Of a stretch of 64,000 nucleotides of DNA, positions 4,589 to 43,417 are shown piece by piece. The DNA lies in the NCBI GenBank assembly GCA_032249235.1, contig JAVVGF010000003.1:64001-128000 (forward strand), given 5' to 3'. The notes beneath the pieces are model-generated. The model had not been told where the DNA came from, made no database searches, and worked only from the letters and a program-made list of their open reading frames with translations. Position 1 is the first letter of the stretch, and the number at the start of each line of letters is the position of its first letter. This DNA comes from Thermoproteota archaeon. Its GTDB lineage: Archaea; Thermoproteota; Thermoprotei; Gearchaeales; Gearchaeaceae. Position numbers and translations under genes: made by a program.

Positions 4589-5710
4589 ATGAAGAGATAC
4601 ATAACGATTATTATCCTATTTGGTTTTGTGAGCATGCTTGCTGATACAACATATGAAGGGGCGAGATCTGTTATTCCACAATATCTCGGTTATCTTGGAG
4701 CTGATTTAGCTTTTGTTGGTTTTTTGGGAGGTATTGGAGAATTTTCGAGCTATCTTCTAAGATTTGCTTCAGGCATGATAGCATCTAGATATGGGCTTCT
4801 ATGGGGTTTAACTATTACAGGCTATGCTTTAACTGGTTTCTCAATAGCCTTGTTATCCATAGCAACGAGCTGGCTTTCTGCATCGATATTAACGATAACA
4901 GAAAGAATAGCGAAAGGTCTTAGAACACCTCCTAGAGATGCTCTTTTAAGCAAGATAGCTCAACAAGGAAGAAGTGGTAGAGCGTTTGGGATTCATGGAG
5001 CTTTAGATCAAATAGGAGCAATCATAGGACCTTCGATAGCTGCTTATATTTTGTATATGCATAATTTTTCGCCTATACTTTTTATGACACTCTCAACTTT
5101 TGCCTTCATTTCAGTAATCATTCTCTTATATACAAGAGCGATATATCCTAAAGATATTGAAACTACACCCAGAAAAATTTCGCTAGGTATTCTTCGAGGG
5201 CCTCTTACTAGGTATGTAATCTCTGTTTCAATGCCAGCTATTGGTCTTGTTTCTATATTCATAGCAATATATTGGATTGGTAGAGAAGATCCTGTGTTAG
5301 GAACAATATATTTCATTGTTATTCAATTTATACAAATACTAGGTTCTTTAGCACTTGGAGAGCTTTATGATAAAATAGGTATGAAGGCTATTTACGTTTA
5401 TTATTTAATTGCACCGCTCATAACTTTGGGTTTTCTTATAAATCAACTATTTTTCTTGTTAATAGGAATTGTTCTAGCTTTAGAGGAAAGCATACAGAGA
5501 GCTATCGTTGGAGATATTGCTAAAGATAAAGAAGCTATCGCATATGGATATTATCACTTAGTTTATGGCTTAGCATCTGCAGCTGGAGGATATATAGTTG
5601 GTTATTTGGCTCAAAATGGTTTAATAATACAGCTTGCCATACTATCAAGCATAACATCATTAGTGGGAGCTCTATTATTCTCTACGATGAGAAGATATAG
5701 AGCTAGCTAG
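4589..5710 (+). CDS. MFS transporter
   Basis: About 12 hydrophobic segments; ERIAKGLRTPPRDALL and GRAFGIHGALDQIGA motifs. Confidence 0.88.
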   Translation: MKRYITIIILFGFVSMLADTTYEGARSVIPQYLGYLGADLAFVGFLGGIGEFSSYLLRFASGMIASRYGLLWGLTITGYALTGFSIALLSIATSWLSASILTITERIAKGLRTPPRDALLSKIAQQGRSGRAFGIHGALDQIGAIIGPSIAAYILYMHNFSPILFMTLSTFAFISVIILLYTRAIYPKDIETTPRKISLGILRGPLTRYVISVSMPAIGLVSIFIAIYWIGREDPVLGTIYFIVIQFIQILGSLALGELYDKIGMKAIYVYYLIAPLITLGFLINQLFFLLIGIVLALEESIQRAIVGDIAKDKEAIAYGYYHLVYGLASAAGGYIVGYLAQNGLIIQLAILSSITSLVGALLFSTMRRYRAS

Positions 5711-6045
5711 GAATGCTTTATTTTGTTTATTTAATACTTTTTAACTTTGTATCTTTTAAATTTAATTCCAAATAATCATATTATATTAATTGTGAATTTT
5801 TATAAATTATTTATTATATAAAAGTTTTCAAAATTAAGTGTATATGATCATATTTAGCGTTTGATAATTCAAGACGTAAAGAGGAAACTCGTTTTATTAA
5901 CTGTCAATAATTGAATTTTGGAAAAATTGGTAAGAGACATGAATGAGCTGTCTGTTCACTAAGCATGAGCATCCAAGAAGAAATTATTCTAATAAAGTAA
6001 TTAAAGTTGTTATCATTTTAATAATAAAAAGATTAAATATAGTTG

Positions 6046-6306
6046 ATGGCGAAGGTTATTTCTCAAGGATATGTGAAGGATTTCATGCGAAGAAGTGTTT
6101 ATTATGTCGATTTCGATGCCACAGTCTATGAAGCTTCGAAAATTATGAAAGCACACGATGTTGGAAGTGTAATAGTTAAATTGAATGATAAACCTGTTGG
6201 TATAATAACAGAAAGAGATATACTTTTGAAAGTTGTTGGCGAAGGTAAAGATCCAAAAAAAAGTAAAAGTTGGAGAAATAATGTCATCACCGCTTATTAC
6301 TGTTAG
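6046..6306 (+). CDS. CBS domain; N-terminal part of a frameshifted CBS-malic enzyme gene
   Basis: VKDFM...ATVYEASKIM...VGIITERDIL is a CBS repeat. Removing one A from the A8 run at 6255-6262 joins it to the next ORF. Confidence 0.75.
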   Translation: MAKVISQGYVKDFMRRSVYYVDFDATVYEASKIMKAHDVGSVIVKLNDKPVGIITERDILLKVVGEGKDPKKSKSWRNNVITAYYC

Positions 6307-7768
6307 AGCTGACGATACGATTGAAGAAGCTTTAAGGAAAATGAGTATTTATGGCTTTAGAAGGATGCCTGTCGTAGGTAAAAATGGAAAAATTATAGGA
6401 ATATTCGCACAAAGGTTCTTGATAAAACCTACAGAAGAAGAATTAGAAAAAAGAGCAAACATTCCTACAGAGGTTTCACCTGCTCTTCATGAATTTTACG
6501 GTGGTAAGATTGAAATTATACCCAAAGTCCAAATTTCTTCATATAGAGACTTTTCTATTTGGTATACTCCTGGTGTTGCTTCAATCGCTAAAGAAATTTC
6601 AAAAGATTTTTCTAAGTTATTTAAATATACGAATAAAGGAAATACAGTAGCCATCGTTTCTGATGGCTCGAGGACATTAGGTCTAGGAGATATAGGACCA
6701 TATTCTTCATTACCTGTTATGGAAGGAAAAGCTTTACTCTTCAAATATTTAGGCGGTGTTGATGCATTTCCAATAACTCTTAATACAAAGGATCCTGAAA
6801 AAATAGTTGAAATCGTAAAGTCAATTGAGCCAGCATTCGGCGGAATAAACTTGGAAGATATCGCTACTCCTAAATGCTTCGCTATTTATGAAAGATTATA
6901 TGAAGAGTTAGATATTCCTGTATGGCATGATGATCAGCATGGTACAGCATTAGTAGTTCTCGCTGCATTAATAAATGCTTTAAAAATTGTAGGAAAGAAG
7001 CATAATGAAATAACAATAACTTTGATAGGTGCTGGTGCTTCAAACTATAGAATAGCCAAAATATTAATAGCTTATGGAGTGAATCCAGCTAACATAATAG
7101 TCGTTGATTCCAAGGGAATTCTTAACAGGAATAGAATTGATTTAAAAGATGAGAATCCCTACAAATGGGAATTATGTAATATAACTAATGGGGAAAACAG
7201 AGAGGGTGGTATAGAAGAAGCTATGAAAGGAAGCGATGTTGTACTAGCTTTTTCTAAACCAGGTCCAGGCGTAATAAAGCCTGAATGGATAAAGCTGATG
7301 AATGATAATGCAATAGTCTTTGCATGTGCTAATCCTATACCTGAAATATGGCCTTGGGAAGCAAAAGAGGCAGGTGCAAGGATCGTAGCTACAGGTAGGA
7401 GCGATTTCCCTAATCAGGTGAACAATTCATTAGGATTTCCTGCAGTATTTAGAGGGGCATTGGAAGTATTAGCTAAAAAGATAACAACTGAGATGTTAAT
7501 AGCAGCAGCAGAAGAAATCGCAAAAATAGCTGAGGAATATGAAATAAACGAAGATTATATAATTCCTACGATGGAACAAGAGGAGGTTTATATTAGAGAA
7601 GCATTAGCCGTTGCTATTAAAGCTCAAGAAATTGGTGTAGCTAGATTAAAGTTATCAAAAGATGAACTCTTCTCAAGAATAAATGAAAAAATTAATAGAT
7701 CGAAAATGATTCTTGAGAAATTAATTAGTGAAGGAATTATAAAACGCTACACTGGAATTACTTATTAA
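6233..7768 (+). CDS. NAD(P)-dependent malic enzyme preceded by a second CBS repeat
   Basis: YTPGVA, PVMEGKALLFK, GGINLEDI, HDDQHGT, ANPIPEI and TGRSDFPNQVNN motifs; N-terminal VGEIMSSPLITV...RRMPVV is a CBS repeat. Confidence 0.9.
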   Translation: MLAKVKIQKKVKVGEIMSSPLITVRADDTIEEALRKMSIYGFRRMPVVGKNGKIIGIFAQRFLIKPTEEELEKRANIPTEVSPALHEFYGGKIEIIPKVQISSYRDFSIWYTPGVASIAKEISKDFSKLFKYTNKGNTVAIVSDGSRTLGLGDIGPYSSLPVMEGKALLFKYLGGVDAFPITLNTKDPEKIVEIVKSIEPAFGGINLEDIATPKCFAIYERLYEELDIPVWHDDQHGTALVVLAALINALKIVGKKHNEITITLIGAGASNYRIAKILIAYGVNPANIIVVDSKGILNRNRIDLKDENPYKWELCNITNGENREGGIEEAMKGSDVVLAFSKPGPGVIKPEWIKLMNDNAIVFACANPIPEIWPWEAKEAGARIVATGRSDFPNQVNNSLGFPAVFRGALEVLAKKITTEMLIAAAEEIAKIAEEYEINEDYIIPTMEQEEVYIREALAVAIKAQEIGVARLKLSKDELFSRINEKINRSKMILEKLISEGIIKRYTGITY

Positions 7769-35382: not shown

Positions 35383-35754
35383 ATGGCTGAAATAAGCGAA
35401 GATGAGCTTTTAAAACAATTCGAAATAGCTAAAGAATTAATCGATAAAGATCCTAACGAAGCTGGAATGTTATTATATAAGATAGCTGAATCTTCTTTAA
35501 TCATACTCGCTAATAAATACGTTCCTTATTATTATGAGAAAATTATAAAAAGCAAAAATACTAAAATTTATTTATTATTTGAAATAGCAAACGAGTTGTC
35601 TAAAAAACTTAATAAAAACTTTAAGAAATATTGGTATGAAGCTTGGGAACTAAGAATAGAGAGCCATGAATATAATTTAACTTCTGATTTTTTAAAAGAA
35701 AGAATTAAGACTATTGAAAAAATTATAAATTTTATTAAGCACAAAAAGAAATAA
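35383..35754 (+). CDS. Divergent PaREP1-like protein
   Basis: DKDPNEAGMLLYKIAE and W..AW.L pattern; the usual LHxxGFHE reads LRIESHE here. Confidence 0.6.
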   Translation: MAEISEDELLKQFEIAKELIDKDPNEAGMLLYKIAESSLIILANKYVPYYYEKIIKSKNTKIYLLFEIANELSKKLNKNFKKYWYEAWELRIESHEYNLTSDFLKERIKTIEKIINFIKHKKK

Positions 35755-35799
35755 TTTTTATAAATCTTTATTAAGATTTTATTCAATAAAAATAATTTA

Positions 35800-35813
35800 T
35801 TGGACAAGTCCAA
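35800..35813. promoter_or_regulatory. Palindrome TTGGAC-AA-GTCCAA; candidate operator of the oxidase operon
   Basis: 6-bp inverted repeat a few bases upstream of TATATTTAAA (35819-28), which lies about 25-30 nt before ATG 35851. Confidence 0.45.
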
Positions 35814-35850
35814 GTGCATATATTTAAATGATATTCATGTTCTCTAGCAT

Positions 35851-36006
35851 ATGAGCAAGAAAATGAATAGAATTACAGCATTGCTTTTAGATAATCTTTG
35901 GTTCTGGGCTATATTAGCTATGACGATAAGTCTAGTCTATGGTGCATGGGCTTTAATAGAGGCATCGAACATGCATATGCCTTCTTTAACTCCAAAGGGG
36001 TGGTAG
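35851..36006 (+). CDS. Small single-TM subunit of the heme-copper oxidase operon (51 aa, absent from the ORF track)
   Basis: MSKKMNRITALLLDNLWFWAILAMTISLVYGAWALIEASNMHMPSLTPKGW; stop is 1 nt before subunit II; TATA-like box upstream. Confidence 0.8.
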   Translation: MSKKMNRITALLLDNLWFWAILAMTISLVYGAWALIEASNMHMPSLTPKGW

Positions 36007-36007
36007 A

Positions 36008-36526
36008 ATGACGCTCTTTCCAAGAAGTTTGGAAGAGTGGTATAAACCATTTACTAAAGAGGAAAAAACATGGTTTATTCTCGCTTTAATTGTAGCTATA
36101 ATACTTGCTGCCACAACAATTAGTTGGTTTTACATAGATCCATATCATCAAGTCCCTGCTAAAAGCTATGCCATAAGTCCTAGTGAGTTTGACAAATTAG
36201 CTACGACGTTCGCAAATTCATATAAAGATAAAATAGTACCTGAGGGCGTTGATGTATATATTGTTGCTCATCAATTCTATTTCAATCCTGCAAAAATTAT
36301 TTTGAAAAAAGGTGTTACTTATAGAATTCATGTTTCTAGTGCCGATGTGCTTCATGGATTCAGCATAATAGGAAAGGATGGGACCGTTTATAATTTAATG
36401 ATAATGCCAGGAATGGCATACATTATACATATAGTTTTCGATAAAGCTGGAATTTATGAATTACGTTGTAATGAATATTGCGGTTCCGGCCATCATTTAA
36501 TGATTGCTACTATAGAGGTGGTTTAG
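36008..36526 (+). CDS. Heme-copper oxidoreductase subunit II (CuA, single TM)
   Basis: DVLHGF and CNEYCGSGHHLM CuA ligands; one TM helix. Confidence 0.93.
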   Translation: MTLFPRSLEEWYKPFTKEEKTWFILALIVAIILAATTISWFYIDPYHQVPAKSYAISPSEFDKLATTFANSYKDKIVPEGVDVYIVAHQFYFNPAKIILKKGVTYRIHVSSADVLHGFSIIGKDGTVYNLMIMPGMAYIIHIVFDKAGIYELRCNEYCGSGHHLMIATIEVV

Positions 36527-36527
36527 T

Positions 36528-38201
36528 ATGACAGAAGCCGGTTTTAGACGTTGTATGGCAACTGGATTGCTAGTTCATTTAGCTTCCCAAAGGCTAATAG
36601 TATTTAACTTCTTGATGGGAATAATTTCTCTAATAATAGGAGGTATTGCAGCGATTTTCGTAGGTTTAACTAGGTCATCTTTTGTTCTCCTTGAGCAGTT
36701 AGGATTACAAAATACGTATTATTATTGGTTGAATTTGCATGGCTTTAATATGCTAATATTCTGGATATTATGGTTTGAAGTTGCATTGATATATTTTGTT
36801 GCTACAATTTTGCTCAATGCACCATTATATAGCATAAGAGTCGGCTGGTTGTCTTTCATTCTAATGTTGATTGGTTGGTTAATAATGAATGTAATGAATA
36901 TTGCAGGAGATTCGATTGTCTTATTCACTGCTTATATTCCTTTAAGCGCTCCTCCTATATTTTACATAGGTTATCTGCTTTTTGCATTAGGCGTAGCTGT
37001 AGCTGTAATTAATTTCTTTTTAACGTTATATAAAGCAAGAATAGAAGGTAGATATTCTGGTCATCTTCCTTTGGTTACATGGGGTGCAGGTATTGCAGCA
37101 ATAATTGGCTTAGTAGTCGTAGCATATGGAGCCTTTGCAATTACTTATGCTTTATTGTTCAGTTCAAATTATGGATTAAGCGGAGATGTAATGTTTTACA
37201 GATGGTTCTTCTGGGGGCTTGGACATTCTGCACAATATGTTAACGTTACTGCAATGGTTGCAGTTTGGTATGCTTTACTTGCTTTAGGAACAGGCTTTGT
37301 TGCAGCAAAATTTGTAAATGAAAGATATGCAAGAATAGCATTTGCGATGTATACTTTATTCGTAGTTCCTGGAATAGGACATCATATATTAGTTGATCCT
37401 GGATTCTCAGCAATCTTTAAGCAAGCAAGCGGAAGTGTCGGTTCTCACTTTTTATCTGTTCCTTCGATGTTGCATGCTTTAGCTTTACTTGGAGGTGTTG
37501 AAGCAACTTTAAGAGCTTCAGGTCATACAAGCCTTTTAGGTTGGCTAAAGAAAATACCATGGAGGAATCCTGCAATATCAGGTATGCTTCTATCTATGAT
37601 TTTGTTTGGAATTGGAGGAATAATAGCCCAACCACAAACTACACTTCAACCAAATCTCTTGTTCCATAATACGCTATGGGTTCCAGGTCATTTTCATTTA
37701 ACAGTTGTCGGAGGTACTACCTTAGCATTTATGAGCTTATCATATTATGTTGTTCCTTTGTTAACAGAGAAAAAATTAATTAGTAGTAAAATGTCTATCA
37801 TACAAATCTATCTCTTCTTCATCGGAATATTTATACTAACTTTAAGTATGGCTTGGTTAGGATGGTTAGGTTCTCCTAGAAGAACGTTCATTAGTTATGA
37901 GGAATTAATAGAAAACGGTTGGTACGTTCCTGCTACATTCCTAGGTATAGGTGCTTTATTGGCTATAGTAGCAGGGATTTTATTTGTTTTAAACATGGTC
38001 TTAACTGTTTTAATAAGCAAGAAAGCAAGTTCAGCATCTGAATTATTAGAAGGATTAGTAAGTCCAATCGAGATAAAAGACGAAAAGGCAGTAAGAAAAA
38101 CAGGTTCATTAGTTATAGTTATAATATTGCTAGTCTTTATTTTGTTAGCTGTTTACTTTGCAAGTTTTATACGTTTAGAAGGTTTGCCAAAGATTTGGTA
38201 A
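36528..38201 (+). CDS. Heme-copper oxidoreductase subunit I, B-family-derived (eNOR/E-type-like)
   Basis: Six His ligands: LHG, GH233SAQY237, GHH and HNT..VPGHFH; SPRR loop; 12+ TM helices. Confidence 0.92.
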   Translation: MTEAGFRRCMATGLLVHLASQRLIVFNFLMGIISLIIGGIAAIFVGLTRSSFVLLEQLGLQNTYYYWLNLHGFNMLIFWILWFEVALIYFVATILLNAPLYSIRVGWLSFILMLIGWLIMNVMNIAGDSIVLFTAYIPLSAPPIFYIGYLLFALGVAVAVINFFLTLYKARIEGRYSGHLPLVTWGAGIAAIIGLVVVAYGAFAITYALLFSSNYGLSGDVMFYRWFFWGLGHSAQYVNVTAMVAVWYALLALGTGFVAAKFVNERYARIAFAMYTLFVVPGIGHHILVDPGFSAIFKQASGSVGSHFLSVPSMLHALALLGGVEATLRASGHTSLLGWLKKIPWRNPAISGMLLSMILFGIGGIIAQPQTTLQPNLLFHNTLWVPGHFHLTVVGGTTLAFMSLSYYVVPLLTEKKLISSKMSIIQIYLFFIGIFILTLSMAWLGWLGSPRRTFISYEELIENGWYVPATFLGIGALLAIVAGILFVLNMVLTVLISKKASSASELLEGLVSPIEIKDEKAVRKTGSLVIVIILLVFILLAVYFASFIRLEGLPKIW

Positions 38202-38266
38202 AGAATATATTTTTTTTTATAATTTTGTATAGATAAAATTTTATACTGCTTTTTTATTTAAATCAT

Positions 38267-38821
38267 GTGGCATTACAAGCTTATAGGGTATCTTTTAGAC
38301 CATGTCCATTTTTATTAGAAATTCTAAACAATGGTGAATTTATAGGATATAGATTCAATAATGAATCTTTACATTTATTAATAAAGTTAAAAGAGATAAA
38401 GCAGAATATAAATAAACCCTCTTATATAAAATTGTTTCGAAATACTAGCTCAAAATATTTAATTGTAGAATGTGGATATAATTGCCCTATAAAATATTTC
38501 ATGAAAAATAGCTATATCAATAAACTTATTATAACAAAGAAAAATATCAATCTATATATTATTAATAATGAGAATATTAAGATGAAGAATATATTATTTA
38601 ATGGTGTATGTTTGATAAAAGTAGAGAGAATGAATATTAAAGATTTGATCATATCCGATGATGAAAGAGAATTCATGAAAAAAGTCATTGCTTTAGGTTA
38701 CTTAGATTACCCGAAGAAAATAACCATAAGAGATCTTGCTAGGAGATTAAAGAAGTCCAAAACAGGGACGATGATGATGGTTAGAAGAATATTTAAAAAA
38801 CTAGCAAGAACTGCTATATGA
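38267..38821 (+). CDS. Transcription regulator with C-terminal Bat-type (HTH-10) domain
   Basis: ALGYLDYPKKITIRDLARRL motif. Confidence 0.8.
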   Translation: MALQAYRVSFRPCPFLLEILNNGEFIGYRFNNESLHLLIKLKEIKQNINKPSYIKLFRNTSSKYLIVECGYNCPIKYFMKNSYINKLIITKKNINLYIINNENIKMKNILFNGVCLIKVERMNIKDLIISDDEREFMKKVIALGYLDYPKKITIRDLARRLKKSKTGTMMMVRRIFKKLARTAI

Positions 38822-38844
38822 CGGCTTATAATTATTTAAGTCTA

Positions 38845-38884
38845 TTCTCTCTGCCCTAAAGGGCGAGGCTTTCAATTCTTGTAA
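38845..38884 (-). mobile_element. Solo IS200/IS605-family left end
   Basis: Minus strand reads TTAC-AAGAATTG-AAAG-CCTCGCCCTTTAGGGCAGAG, nearly identical to the hairpin at 30586-30620. Confidence 0.65.
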
Positions 38885-38985
38885 CTCACAGTGAAAATCA
38901 TTTTATAACAATCAAGCTTAATAAATAGGTATCATTTTTAAGTAACATATCAATGAATTTATATTGAATTTAAGAAAAGATAGGT

Positions 38986-41425: not shown

Positions 41426-42826
41426 ATGGTAAGAATATTTTTAGTGAACGCCTTAAATATTCGGGGGTTAAGTTTTTTAACGCTGTTAATCAGAGAAAAA
41501 GCGATGCAAGCGTCTTACGAAACAAAACAAGAAAAAGGTATCGTGATCTCTAATCTTAAAAAGAACGAAAAGATTAGAATTTTAGTTTTAGGTAGTGGCT
41601 TTGCCGGTATGTCTTTCGTAAAATCCTTCATTAAAAACATAAGCGATGAGCTTTGCAACAAAATAGAGCTTATAATCGTTACAAAAAAGGCTTATCATTT
41701 GTTCACTCCTCTTCTCTATCAAGTAGCCACAGGCCTAGTGAACGAGTATCATATACTTGATCCGATTAGGAATAAAAATAAAAAAATAAATTACGAAGTC
41801 ATAGAAGCTGAAGTTTTAGATATTGATTTAATTCAAAAGATTGTAATAACCAACTCATTCGAAATTCCTTATGATTATTTGATAATCGCATTGGGTTCTG
41901 TAACGAATTATTTCGGTATAAAAGGAGCTAGTGAATATGCCATTCCTTTAAAAAATCCTGAAGATGCGATCAAGATTAGGAATAAAATAATCGAATCTTT
42001 TGAAAAAGCATCGCTTCTAGCAAAAAATGATAAAGAAAGAAGATTGTTATTAACATTCGTTATAATAGGTGGTGGGCCAAGTGGTGTTGAGCTAGCTGGA
42101 TCTATCAAAGATTATTTGCGTCAACTTTGCAAGAAATATTATCCTATTGATCCTAAAGAAACACGCGTAATAATTGTTGAGGCAATGAATAGATTGCTTC
42201 CTCAAGCTAGAGAAAAGACATCAGAAAAGTGCAAAAAATCTCTTGAAAAAGCTGGTATAGAAATTTTATTGAATACAAAAGTACTAGCGATTGAAGAAGA
42301 TGGTGTTATAACTAACGAAGGAGTAAAAATTGAGTCATATAATGCTTTTTGGACTGCAGGTATAAAGAGCAATCCAATTGTTGAAAGGCTCCCTGAAGAA
42401 TTGATCCCTAAGAAAAAAGGAAAAATCATTGTAGATGAATACTTTAGACTTCCAAGCTTTCAAAATGTTTTTGCAATAGGAGATAATGCATGGATTTCAA
42501 ATAAATCTAAAACTGATCCTGTTCCAGCAATGGCATCTGCTGCTGTTCAAGAAGGTAAATATTTAGGCGAATATTTGGCTAATCTGCTTTCTAAGAAAAG
42601 CAACTTAAAGCCATTCAAATATAAGGACTTTGGTATGATGTTTTCTTTGGGAAGATTTGATGGATTAGTAGAGTTTCCTAATGGTTTAGTTATATCAGGG
42701 TTCTTAGGATGGATAATTTGGAGAATGGTTCATTTAGTTAAAATAGCAACGATAAGAAATAAGCTTGGAGTTATGTTTGACTGGACAATGTCTTTATTTA
42801 AGAGAAGAATAATAACTAGAGTTTAA
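41426..42826 (+). CDS. ndh: Type II NADH:quinone oxidoreductase (NDH-2); true start probably 41504
   Basis: GSGFAG, FTPLLYQVATG, GGGPSGVELAG, WTAG, FAIGD, AVQEG and F.YKD.G motifs. Confidence 0.9.
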   Translation: MVRIFLVNALNIRGLSFLTLLIREKAMQASYETKQEKGIVISNLKKNEKIRILVLGSGFAGMSFVKSFIKNISDELCNKIELIIVTKKAYHLFTPLLYQVATGLVNEYHILDPIRNKNKKINYEVIEAEVLDIDLIQKIVITNSFEIPYDYLIIALGSVTNYFGIKGASEYAIPLKNPEDAIKIRNKIIESFEKASLLAKNDKERRLLLTFVIIGGGPSGVELAGSIKDYLRQLCKKYYPIDPKETRVIIVEAMNRLLPQAREKTSEKCKKSLEKAGIEILLNTKVLAIEEDGVITNEGVKIESYNAFWTAGIKSNPIVERLPEELIPKKKGKIIVDEYFRLPSFQNVFAIGDNAWISNKSKTDPVPAMASAAVQEGKYLGEYLANLLSKKSNLKPFKYKDFGMMFSLGRFDGLVEFPNGLVISGFLGWIIWRMVHLVKIATIRNKLGVMFDWTMSLFKRRIITRV

Positions 42827-42841
42827 AAATTTAGAACTAAA

Positions 42842-43417
42842 CTAAGAAGATAGATTTCTAAATATTTGATATACTCTTTCTAGTTGATTCGGCAAAACAT
42901 ACTCTTTTTCAATTATATATCCTTGTTTATTAATGATATAATAAACATCAGGATATCCTTCAGGATCGTAAAGTTGTGTAGTCTTAGGATCGCTAACACC
43001 AATATACCAATTCTGCTTCATGCCTCCTATAAATCTTGAAGCAAATTCTTCCATAGACATTCCTGGCTGATTAAGATTGTTGTAAAGTTGAATTGTAATT
43101 ATGATCACACCCAACTCATAAAATTTAGGATAATAATTCTTCGCTAACAATTCTGCACCATTCCAACAAGAACTGCACCAAGTTGCTACAAACCAAATTA
43201 AAACGGGTTTTCCTTTAAAATCGCTTAGTTTAACTATTGTCCCATTTATCAATTTTAAAGAAAAGTCTTCAGCTAAGTTCTTATTTGAACTAATGGGTGT
43301 GATTGGATTCGATGGACTTGTATTTGATTGTAGGTTTATAAATATTAAAATTATAAAGAAAGCAAGAATAACTAAACCAATCAATAATGATTTTGATTTC
43401 TTCTTAGCTTTTTTCAT
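42842..43417 (-). CDS. Membrane-anchored thioredoxin-fold protein (TlpA/redoxin-like)
   Basis: N-terminal TM segment; LSDFKGKPVLIWFVATWCSSC (CxxC). Confidence 0.85.
   Translation of the reverse strand: MKKAKKKSKSLLIGLVILAFFIILIFINLQSNTSPSNPITPISSNKNLAEDFSLKLINGTIVKLSDFKGKPVLIWFVATWCSSCWNGAELLAKNYYPKFYELGVIIITIQLYNNLNQPGMSMEEFASRFIGGMKQNWYIGVSDPKTTQLYDPEGYPDVYYIINKQGYIIEKEYVLPNQLERVYQIFRNLSS

Follow-up and report, generated by a model that had tools for sequence, protein, structure and literature searches.

A three-gene operon for a probable heme-copper oxidase of a Gearchaeaceae archaeon, with the oxygen-reductase tyrosine on a scaffold adjoining the eNOR nitric oxide reductases

The window analysed here is a whole 64-kb stretch (positions 64,001 to 128,000 of contig JAVVGF010000003.1) from a hot-spring Thermoproteota archaeon of the family Gearchaeaceae, whose genome assembly (GCA_032249235.1) has 1.43 Mb in 18 contigs and is 91% complete. 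The GC content of the window is low, about 27-36%. Three tightly packed genes on the + strand at 35851-38201 encode a 51-codon open reading frame (ORF), a subunit II and a subunit I of a heme-copper oxidoreductase (HCO). The intergenic spacing within this oxidase operon is 1 nt and all frames are intact. An earlier reading made from the DNA letters and their translations, hereafter the sequence-only reading, had considered the subunit I gene as an O2 reductase within or sister to the eNOR nitric oxide reductases. The genes of the operon and the two motifs of subunit I on which the analysis turns are the following:

35851..36006, + strand: small one-helix ORF of 51 aa with a basic N-terminus; its stop lies 1 nt ahead of the subunit II ATG.
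36008..36526, + strand: subunit II, 172 aa, with one N-terminal membrane helix and a cupredoxin domain (PF00116 COX2, 6.6e-07).
36528..38201, + strand: subunit I, 557 aa, ATG start, 13 predicted membrane helices (PF00115 COX1, E 1.2e-58).
37224..37238, + strand: helix VI motif His233-Ser-Ala-Gln-Tyr237, codons CAT ... TAT, in ungapped alignment with H233-P-I-V-Y237 of the ba3 oxidase.
37464..37475, + strand: K-channel analogue Ser313-Met-Leu-His316 of helix VIII, with its partner Tyr248 in helix VI, from the ba3 alignment.

Subunit I matches PF00115 with 199.5 bits (cut-off of 34.8), which places it in the heme-copper oxidoreductase superfamily. The six motifs that the sequence-only reading had picked out in the ORF are all present in the 557-aa translation, which contains FRRCMATGLLVH, HGFNMLIFWILWFE, GHSAQYVNVTAMVAVWY, HHILVDPG, SMLH and HNTLWVPGHFH. 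The same reading had pointed to a His233 followed by a Tyr237 without the Pro and Val of HPxVY; the codons are indeed CAT (37224-37226) and TAT (37236-37238), and the motif is HSAQY. In the HMMER alignment to the ba3 oxidase of Thermus thermophilus (E ~1e-46), GHSAQY lies ungapped over GHPIVY, therefore His233 and Tyr237 fall on the cross-link pair His233/Tyr237 of ba3, and the misplacement of Tyr237 relative to the cross-link Tyr, which that reading had named as fatal to its claim, did not occur. In helix VI of subunit I, the first CuB His is thus followed at the fourth residue by the Tyr typical of A- and B-type oxygen reductases, for which a covalent cross-link is predicted. Residues H71, H233, H285, H286, H388 and H390 are invariant in a 51-row alignment. 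The AF2 model of subunit I generated from this alignment has a mean predicted local distance difference test (pLDDT) value of 94.1 and a predicted template modelling score (pTM) of 0.94, and shows 13 long helices plus a short N-terminal hairpin. According to Foldseek, its best matches in the PDB are the T. thermophilus ba3 chains, with template modelling (TM) scores of 0.79-0.80 and 25-26% identity, followed by the Aquifex-type 7DEG entry and A-type oxidases; no eNOR-like or B9 structure turned up among these PDB matches.

Oxygen reduction by HCOs requires the cross-linked Tyr, and the families without it are nitric oxide reductases (NORs), as stated in PMC11214002 and PMC8756737. Murali et al. 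2024 (PNAS, PMC11214002) split the B-family into subfamilies B1-B9, and eNOR, together with other NORs, is there derived from B-family oxygen reductases. In PMC8756737, eNOR is defined by a Gln, and Tyr-bearing oxidase sequences form the outgroup of its eNOR tree. The sequence-only reading had placed this Gln at the cross-link site of eNOR, in agreement with Dataset S1 of PMC11214002, which gives Q-245 for the Rhodothermus marinus protein and Y-237 for ba3. The R. marinus eNOR is a NO reductase unable to reduce O2, and has heme As in both sites (PMC11214002).

A search of a 5.8-billion-protein collection gave 1115 matches, and the best 120 of them comprise 63 proteins with Tyr (Tyr-type) and 57 with Gln (Gln-type) four residues after the His (His+4). 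Within the same best 120, a regular expression found the channel motif [ST]-x-x-H in 118. When 1.84 billion cluster representatives were searched exhaustively, 1094 matches were obtained at E<=1e-3, 76 of them at E<=1e-30. Sequence identity of subunit I to Gln-type (eNOR-like) proteins ranges between 40 and 43%, the upper value being that with P0056 over the full length, N-terminal R-x-C-x-x-T-G-L-x-V included; identity to the canonical GHPLVYFW B-type oxidase of the same genome is 33%.

For further comparisons, an 88-row alignment was made up of full-length representatives (at least 440 aa), a 72%-identity subsample of the best matches, and the A- and B-type proteins of the genome. Columns were compared over 23 Tyr-type, 17 Gln-type and 16 HPxVY-type rows, leaving out P0126 (long branch) and P0124 (fragment), and a position was taken as discriminating when it is at least 85% conserved in both groups, yet different between them. 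Only positions 237 (Y/Q), 302 (G/T), 309 (L/A) and 371 (T/G) separate Tyr-type from Gln-type rows, and the Tyr column holds Tyr in 23/23 and Gln in 17/17 of the respective rows. Fifteen positions are common to the Tyr-type and Gln-type and rare in HPxVY-type rows, including Glu84, Gln236, Asn239, Asn264 and His316.

Two further features are common to the Tyr-type and Gln-type proteins. The N-terminal R-x-C-x-x-T-G-L-x-V motif, with its conserved Cys, spans residues 6-17 (36543-36578) and takes the form of a short beta-hairpin at the cytoplasmic face of the model. Glu84 (36777-36779), which is membrane-embedded in helix II, is found in 90% or more of the rows of either type, and the same column holds Ile or Ala in 15/16 HPxVY-type rows; Glu84 could be part of a second proton path or of the active-site shell.

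Subunit II shows matches to TIGR02866 CoxB (2e-11) and SoxA (7e-10), both below the cut-offs. Its CuA ligands H116, C154, C158, H162 and M165 are invariant in 7/7 aligned subunit II sequences, and the CuA site of A/B-type oxygen reductases (H, C-x3-C-x3-H-x2-M) is complete. Glu19 of subunit II is located ahead of the membrane helix, and the acidic residue of its ..EEK-TW.. stretch aligns with the E of Gln-type sequences; this column holds E in five of the six eNOR/B9-type rows and D in one. In subunit I, VPSMLHALA lies over VPSLMTAFT of ba3, which puts S313 on S309, H316 on T312 and A319 on T315. Both the Tyr-type and the Gln-type rows have His316 in 90% or more of cases, and 15/16 HPxVY-type rows have Thr instead. 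According to Dataset S1 of Murali et al. 2024 (PMC11214002), the corresponding eNOR residues are S-318, H-321, Y-256 and E-(II)21, the last one being matched in ba3 by E-(II)15 as a K-channel residue. The putative channel residues of the window protein (S313, H316, Y248 and E19(II)) align with these four, so that, as judged from its aligned residues, the protein combines an eNOR-type channel with the oxidase Tyr.

Phylogeny was studied with a quick tree of 83 rows, from which P0124, P0137, P0158, P0161 and P0248 had been dropped as fragmentary or badly aligned, and with a careful tree of 47 rows picked to represent each group; both trees agree. In the careful tree, HPxVY-type sequences are split off by a 100/100 branch, and the window protein falls inside a 100/100 clade of H-x-A-Q-Y proteins. 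The H-x-A-Q-Y motif is found in 15/15 rows of this clade in the 88-row alignment, and is therefore a property of the family and not a product of chance. The topology is (own clade,(Kariarchaeaceae H-T-A-Q-Y pair, Gln clade)), with supports of 89/77 and 92/80, and the next clade to join contains H-T-L-Q-Y proteins of ~520 aa; supports in this region are moderate (92/80, 89/77 and 89/71). The Gln clade is supported at 100/99 and excludes the window protein, whose clade adjoins eNOR and is not placed inside it.

Holding the clade of the window protein together with the HPxVY oxidases was rejected by an approximately unbiased (AU) test run after the tree had been seen (p=3e-6). When all Tyr-type clades were held together the test gave p=0.196, which is not a rejection; therefore, the tree fits eNOR as nested among Tyr-bearing lineages or as their sister. 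In addition, the SoxB model NF041075 gave only 17.5 bits on subunit I, against a cut-off of 700. Grouping with ba3/SoxB oxidases, the outcome that the sequence-only reading had set against itself, was not found, and its proposal of an O2 reductase within or sister to eNOR is supported by a clade adjoining the Gln clade and by a K-channel of the eNOR type, O2 being the predicted substrate.

The next tree neighbours of the eNOR/B9 group (P0129, P0132 and P0152, among others) show H-x-x-H-Y in helix VI and Y-H at the two CuB His. A further neighbouring clade (P0151, P0153 and P0182, among others) contains proteins of ~470-480 aa with H-x-L-Q-[YF].

An ORF of 47-64 codons is located directly 5' of subunit II in 8/8 loci of this kind examined: the window, L001, L002, L003 and the paralogue locus L022, all Tyr-type, and the bacterial Gln-type loci L005, L006 and L007, with L004 outside the count. 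Each of these ORFs shows one hydrophobic helix and the common pattern L-[LM]-[DE]-N-x-W ... Y-x-x-W. No Pfam match at E<=10 was found for 5/7 small ORFs, among them that of the window, and the matches of the other two are at chance level. The small ORF resembles subunit IIa of ba3 in its position, size and topology alone, with no match to the family model. The ba3 gene order is presumably cbaD-cbaB-cbaA. Complex prediction of the small protein against subunits I and II gave a median of 0.93 over three runs, and 0.00 for the best of three controls; contacts agree in at least 90% and the partner pLDDT is at least 79. The mark used is reached by 116/157 solved complexes and by 2/215 mismatched pairs. 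The model suggests, and does not show, that the small protein binds subunits I/II, and we consider the small ORF as a candidate third subunit, in a position analogous to that of ba3 subunit IIa. The main text of PMC11214002, which characterised eNOR, makes no mention of a small subunit (the SI appendix is outside this statement).

The Tyr-type loci contain these three genes only, plus an adjacent HTH_10 gene in two cases, and the Gln-type loci have in addition SCO1, a cytochrome b/4Fe-4S/FlpD fusion and a UbiA-family (CtaB-like) gene. In L005 and L007, two Gln-type bacterial loci with SCO1, the cytochrome b/4Fe-4S/FlpD fusion and the UbiA-family gene downstream, a second and distant COX1-like ORF of 477-506 aa (PF00115, E ~1e-13) is located just 5' of the small ORF, at 5668-7188 and 5779-7212, respectively. 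In L006, from a Thermodesulfovibrionia genome, a 335-aa two-domain multicopper protein, NirK-like by its domains, is encoded at 6033-7040 directly 5' of the Gln-type operon.

The genome holds three HCO genes: an A-type with fused subunits I+III (GHPEVY), a canonical B-type (GHPLVY) with its own CuA subunit II, and the present gene. The same trio is found in G001-G003, the assemblies that hold L001, L002 and L003, and is an aerobe's set. Genes for heme O synthase and Rieske proteins are also present. L001, whose subunit I is a 90% orthologue, belongs to 'Crenarchaeota archaeon SCGC AAA471-B05', the closest named relative, assigned in GTDB to o__Gearchaeales and f__Gearchaeaceae (Murali et al. 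2024, PMC11214002). In this relative, each of the four HCO genes encodes Tyr at His+4 (GHPEVY, GHPLVY, GHSAQY and GHNAQY); its second paralogue (GHNAQY) shows Thr instead of Ser313, and the assembly also holds L020 and L022. A survey of 120 genomes from this GTDB class gave matches at E<=1e-80 in 6/8 other genomes of the family to which the window belongs, and in 0/111 genomes of 14 other families. The family orthologues are 53-90% identical and none has internal stops. The sequence-only reading had seen no other denitrification gene in the window, and this now extends to the genome: profile searches found no NirK, NarG or NirS-type cytochrome d1 in the 91%-complete assembly, and no NosZ, for which the sole matches, all below the cut-off, came from the CuA domains of the three subunit II proteins.

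Two paralogue types exist in the family, a Ser313 type that is 82-90% identical to the window protein and a Thr313 type that is 53-58% identical. The genome of the window has the Ser313 type only, two genomes of the same genus the Thr313 type only, and G009 both (G006, G007 and G009 were compared). This pattern points to differential loss or transfer.

Among known systems, eNOR (R. marinus DSM 4252; Hemp & Gennis 2008 as cited in PMC8756737) is like the window protein in its 40-43% identity, its K-channel Ser/His/Tyr plus Glu(II), its Gln236, Glu84 and N-terminal motif, its CuA subunit II and the small ORF upstream. However, the window protein has Tyr237 for the defining Gln and Gly302/Leu309/Thr371 for Thr/Ala/Gly, its locus is without SCO1, the cytochrome b/FeS fusion and CtaB, and no denitrification genes were found in its genome. 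The T. thermophilus ba3 oxidase (B1-subfamily; PDB 1EHK, 1XME and 3S8F) is alike in fold (TM 0.80), in its 13 helices, in the His233/Tyr237 numbering, in the equivalents of Ser309 and Tyr248, in a one-helix CuA subunit II, and in having a small one-helix gene before that of subunit II; the window protein differs from it by an identity of only ~25-26%, by HSAQY for HPIVY, His316 for Thr312, Ala319 for Thr315 and Val244 for Tyr244. The combination that marks the B1-subfamily (H-P-x-V-Y, Ser309/Thr312 and grouping with ba3-like sequences) was not found. The SoxB quinol oxidase of Sulfolobales (NF041075) is likewise an archaeal B-type subunit I, but the subunit II of the window keeps a full CuA site.

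The closest likeness is to the B9-subfamily, with the same Tyr, a CuA subunit II and matching taxa; nothing was seen to differ, the membership being read from published tables. Dataset S6 of PMC11214002 gives B9=1 for 3/3 Gearchaeaceae genomes and for Heimdallarchaeia LC-2, and lists SCGC-AAA471-B05 with A=1, B1=1, B9=1 and ENOR=0, and the B9 entries of Dataset S4 include one protein of Heimdallarchaeota LC_2, one of Rokubacteria, and sequences from hot-spring metagenomes. In our tree, Kariarchaeaceae-named proteins fall in the wider group of the window protein. Because the taxa of these B9 entries match those of the present group, the oxidase lineage is most probably the B9-subfamily, a label that comes from genome-level tables and not from placing B9 reference sequences. 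The kind is already catalogued, and the present gene is an added member of an uncharacterised subfamily and not a new kind. What is added here is the three-gene operon, with a conserved 51-codon one-helix ORF ahead of subunit II. A literature search on the subfamily names B3, B4, B5 and B9 returned only unrelated plant work. The label 'E-family', used in the sequence-only reading, occurs in none of the papers listed by a literature search, and the published label that now fits is B9-subfamily.

We consider it quite likely that the operon encodes a three-subunit, CuA-fed terminal oxidase of the Tyr-bearing lineage adjoining eNOR, with O2 as its predicted substrate. In such an enzyme, electrons would pass from a donor outside the membrane to CuA of subunit II, and from there to the low-spin heme (His71/His390) and on to the high-spin heme (His388) and CuB (His233, His285 and His286). 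Tyr237, presumably cross-linked to His233, would give the fourth electron and a proton, and O2 would be split to water. The substrate protons, and perhaps pumped ones, would come from the cytoplasm via a single K-type channel of the eNOR type, with a predicted path through Glu19(II), Tyr248, His316, Ser313 and Tyr237, in this order, and with His at the Thr312 site of ba3.

Besides the indirect origin of the B9 label, several points weigh against this oxidase reading. In all else the protein has the scaffold of a proven NO reductase, with only four discriminating positions, and B-family oxidases reduce NO in vitro (PMC11214002), therefore some NO turnover by the window enzyme is likely. Dataset S8 of PMC11214002 scores SCGC-AAA471-B05 with ENOR=1 and nirS=1. 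The main text of the same paper, where B9 goes undiscussed, reports no enzymology on the Tyr-type/B9 lineage. As to the electron donor, searches of the 91%-complete genome for SoxE-type and plastocyanin/azurin-type cupredoxins gave nothing. Heme A synthase (CtaA, PF02628) gave no match either, a result that is uninformative as the Sulfolobus control was also silent. Finally, the pass of the small protein in complex prediction may reflect its ba3 likeness, because ba3 with subunit IIa is a solved complex, and small custom alignments were used.

Some of these points would also suit a physiological NO reductase, or a bifunctional O2/NO reductase for NO detoxification, that works despite the Tyr. 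The window protein has 40-43% identity to the Gln-type proteins and shares with them the K-channel residues, the N-terminal motif, Glu84, Gln236 and the small subunit, with only four discriminating positions; in vitro NO reduction is known from both B- and C-family oxidases (PMC11214002), and the Dataset S8 entries concern the very genome that holds the 90% orthologue. Nevertheless, we regard this explanation as improbable, since the Tyr is present in all 23 Tyr-type rows and eNOR is defined by Gln, and since the R. marinus eNOR does not reduce O2 (PMC11214002), which separates the two chemistries in the tested member. Furthermore, nirK, nirS, narG and nosZ were not found in the genome, and SCO1, cytochrome b/FeS and CtaB genes accompany the Gln-type loci and not the Tyr-type ones. 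The ENOR=1 entry has no matching Gln-type gene, as all four HCO genes of SCGC AAA471-B05 carry Tyr, and one of its Tyr-type paralogues was probably scored as eNOR.

An ordinary ba3/SoxB-type oxidase (B1 or Sulfolobales-type) with a drifted helix VI motif would explain why the closest solved structures, by sequence (E ~1e-46) and by fold (TM 0.80), are those of T. thermophilus ba3. We give this hardly any credence: a canonical GHPLVYFW oxidase is encoded elsewhere in the genome and shares only 33% identity with the present protein, the 100/100 branch and the AU result (p=3e-6) keep the two groups apart, the SoxB score of 17.5 bits is far from 700, and 15 positions are common with the Gln clade and not with HPxVY-type rows. 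As far as sequence data allow, the tree and the AU test refute this identity. A decaying or non-functional paralogue beside the A-type and B-type oxidases of the genome is very unlikely too, if slightly less so; redundancy with two other oxidases and the variable retention of the paralogue types among related genomes speak for it, but the intact frames, 1-nt gene spacings, invariant ligands and AF2 pLDDT of 94 do not, nor do orthologues of 53-90% identity, without internal stops, in 6/8 other genomes of the family.

The oxidase operon is flanked by two features that could bear on its expression:

35820..35829, + strand: TATA-like box ATATTTAAAT, its centre ~26 nt 5' of the first ATG of the operon.
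38267..38821, + strand: HTH_10 (Bat-type) DNA-binding protein, 184 aa (PF04967, 1.8e-08).

The ATATATTTAAA stretch of the TATA-like box is common to the orthologous locus L001, and the box is likely the archaeal promoter of a leaderless transcript. Several AT-rich inverted repeats are located 5' of it, at 35746-35807 of the window; with 30% GC and only L001 alignable, they are indistinguishable from chance. An HTH_10 gene is also found beside the orthologous operon in L003 (6459-7013, opposite strand), and the metagenomic ORF P0033 shows PF04967 and PF00115 matches in one ORF. By its adjacency, the HTH_10 protein is a candidate regulator of the operon.

The remaining flanking genes are unrelated housekeeping or redox genes, and encode a thiamine pyrophosphate (TPP) enzyme, a 2-hydroxyacid dehydrogenase, PaREP1, a diphthamide-synthase-like protein, an S9 peptidase, NDH-2, a membrane-anchored redoxin and an acyl-CoA synthetase. 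Two of them are located 3-5 kb 3' of the operon: the type-II NADH dehydrogenase (41426-42826, + strand) and the membrane-anchored thioredoxin-fold redoxin, which has a CSSC motif (42842-43417, - strand). These two may have putative respiratory or copper-site assembly roles. DNA near-identical to 35800-38900 of the window (at least 73% of sampled words) occurs in six hot-spring metagenome runs from four studies, in addition to two runs that are possible sources of the assembly; there are no RNA runs among the sequencing runs listed as matching this region.

Among oxygen-reducing lineages, this one would be the nearest to eNOR, whose NO reductase activity is proven by biochemistry, and therefore a natural partner for asking which residues set O2 versus NO chemistry. 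Tyr-type and Gln-type proteins can be regarded as one scaffold, with a small subunit and a proton channel in common, and if the four changes suffice to switch the chemistry, the archaeal enzyme might keep the O2-reducing ancestral state behind eNOR, an idea that we put forward tentatively, as a possible and rather doubtful one. If true, the pair would be a natural minimal system for the conversion of O2 reductase and NO reductase into one another. It is also possible that the Tyr-type enzyme already reduces NO in vivo at rates of use to the cell. The small subunit, common to archaeal Tyr-type and bacterial Gln-type operons, is worth seeking in purified enzymes. Furthermore, profile searches readily score such near relatives as eNOR, as suggested by the ENOR=1 entry for a genome with four Tyr-bearing HCO genes; therefore, counts of NO reductases in genomes and metagenomes should check the Tyr/Gln column.

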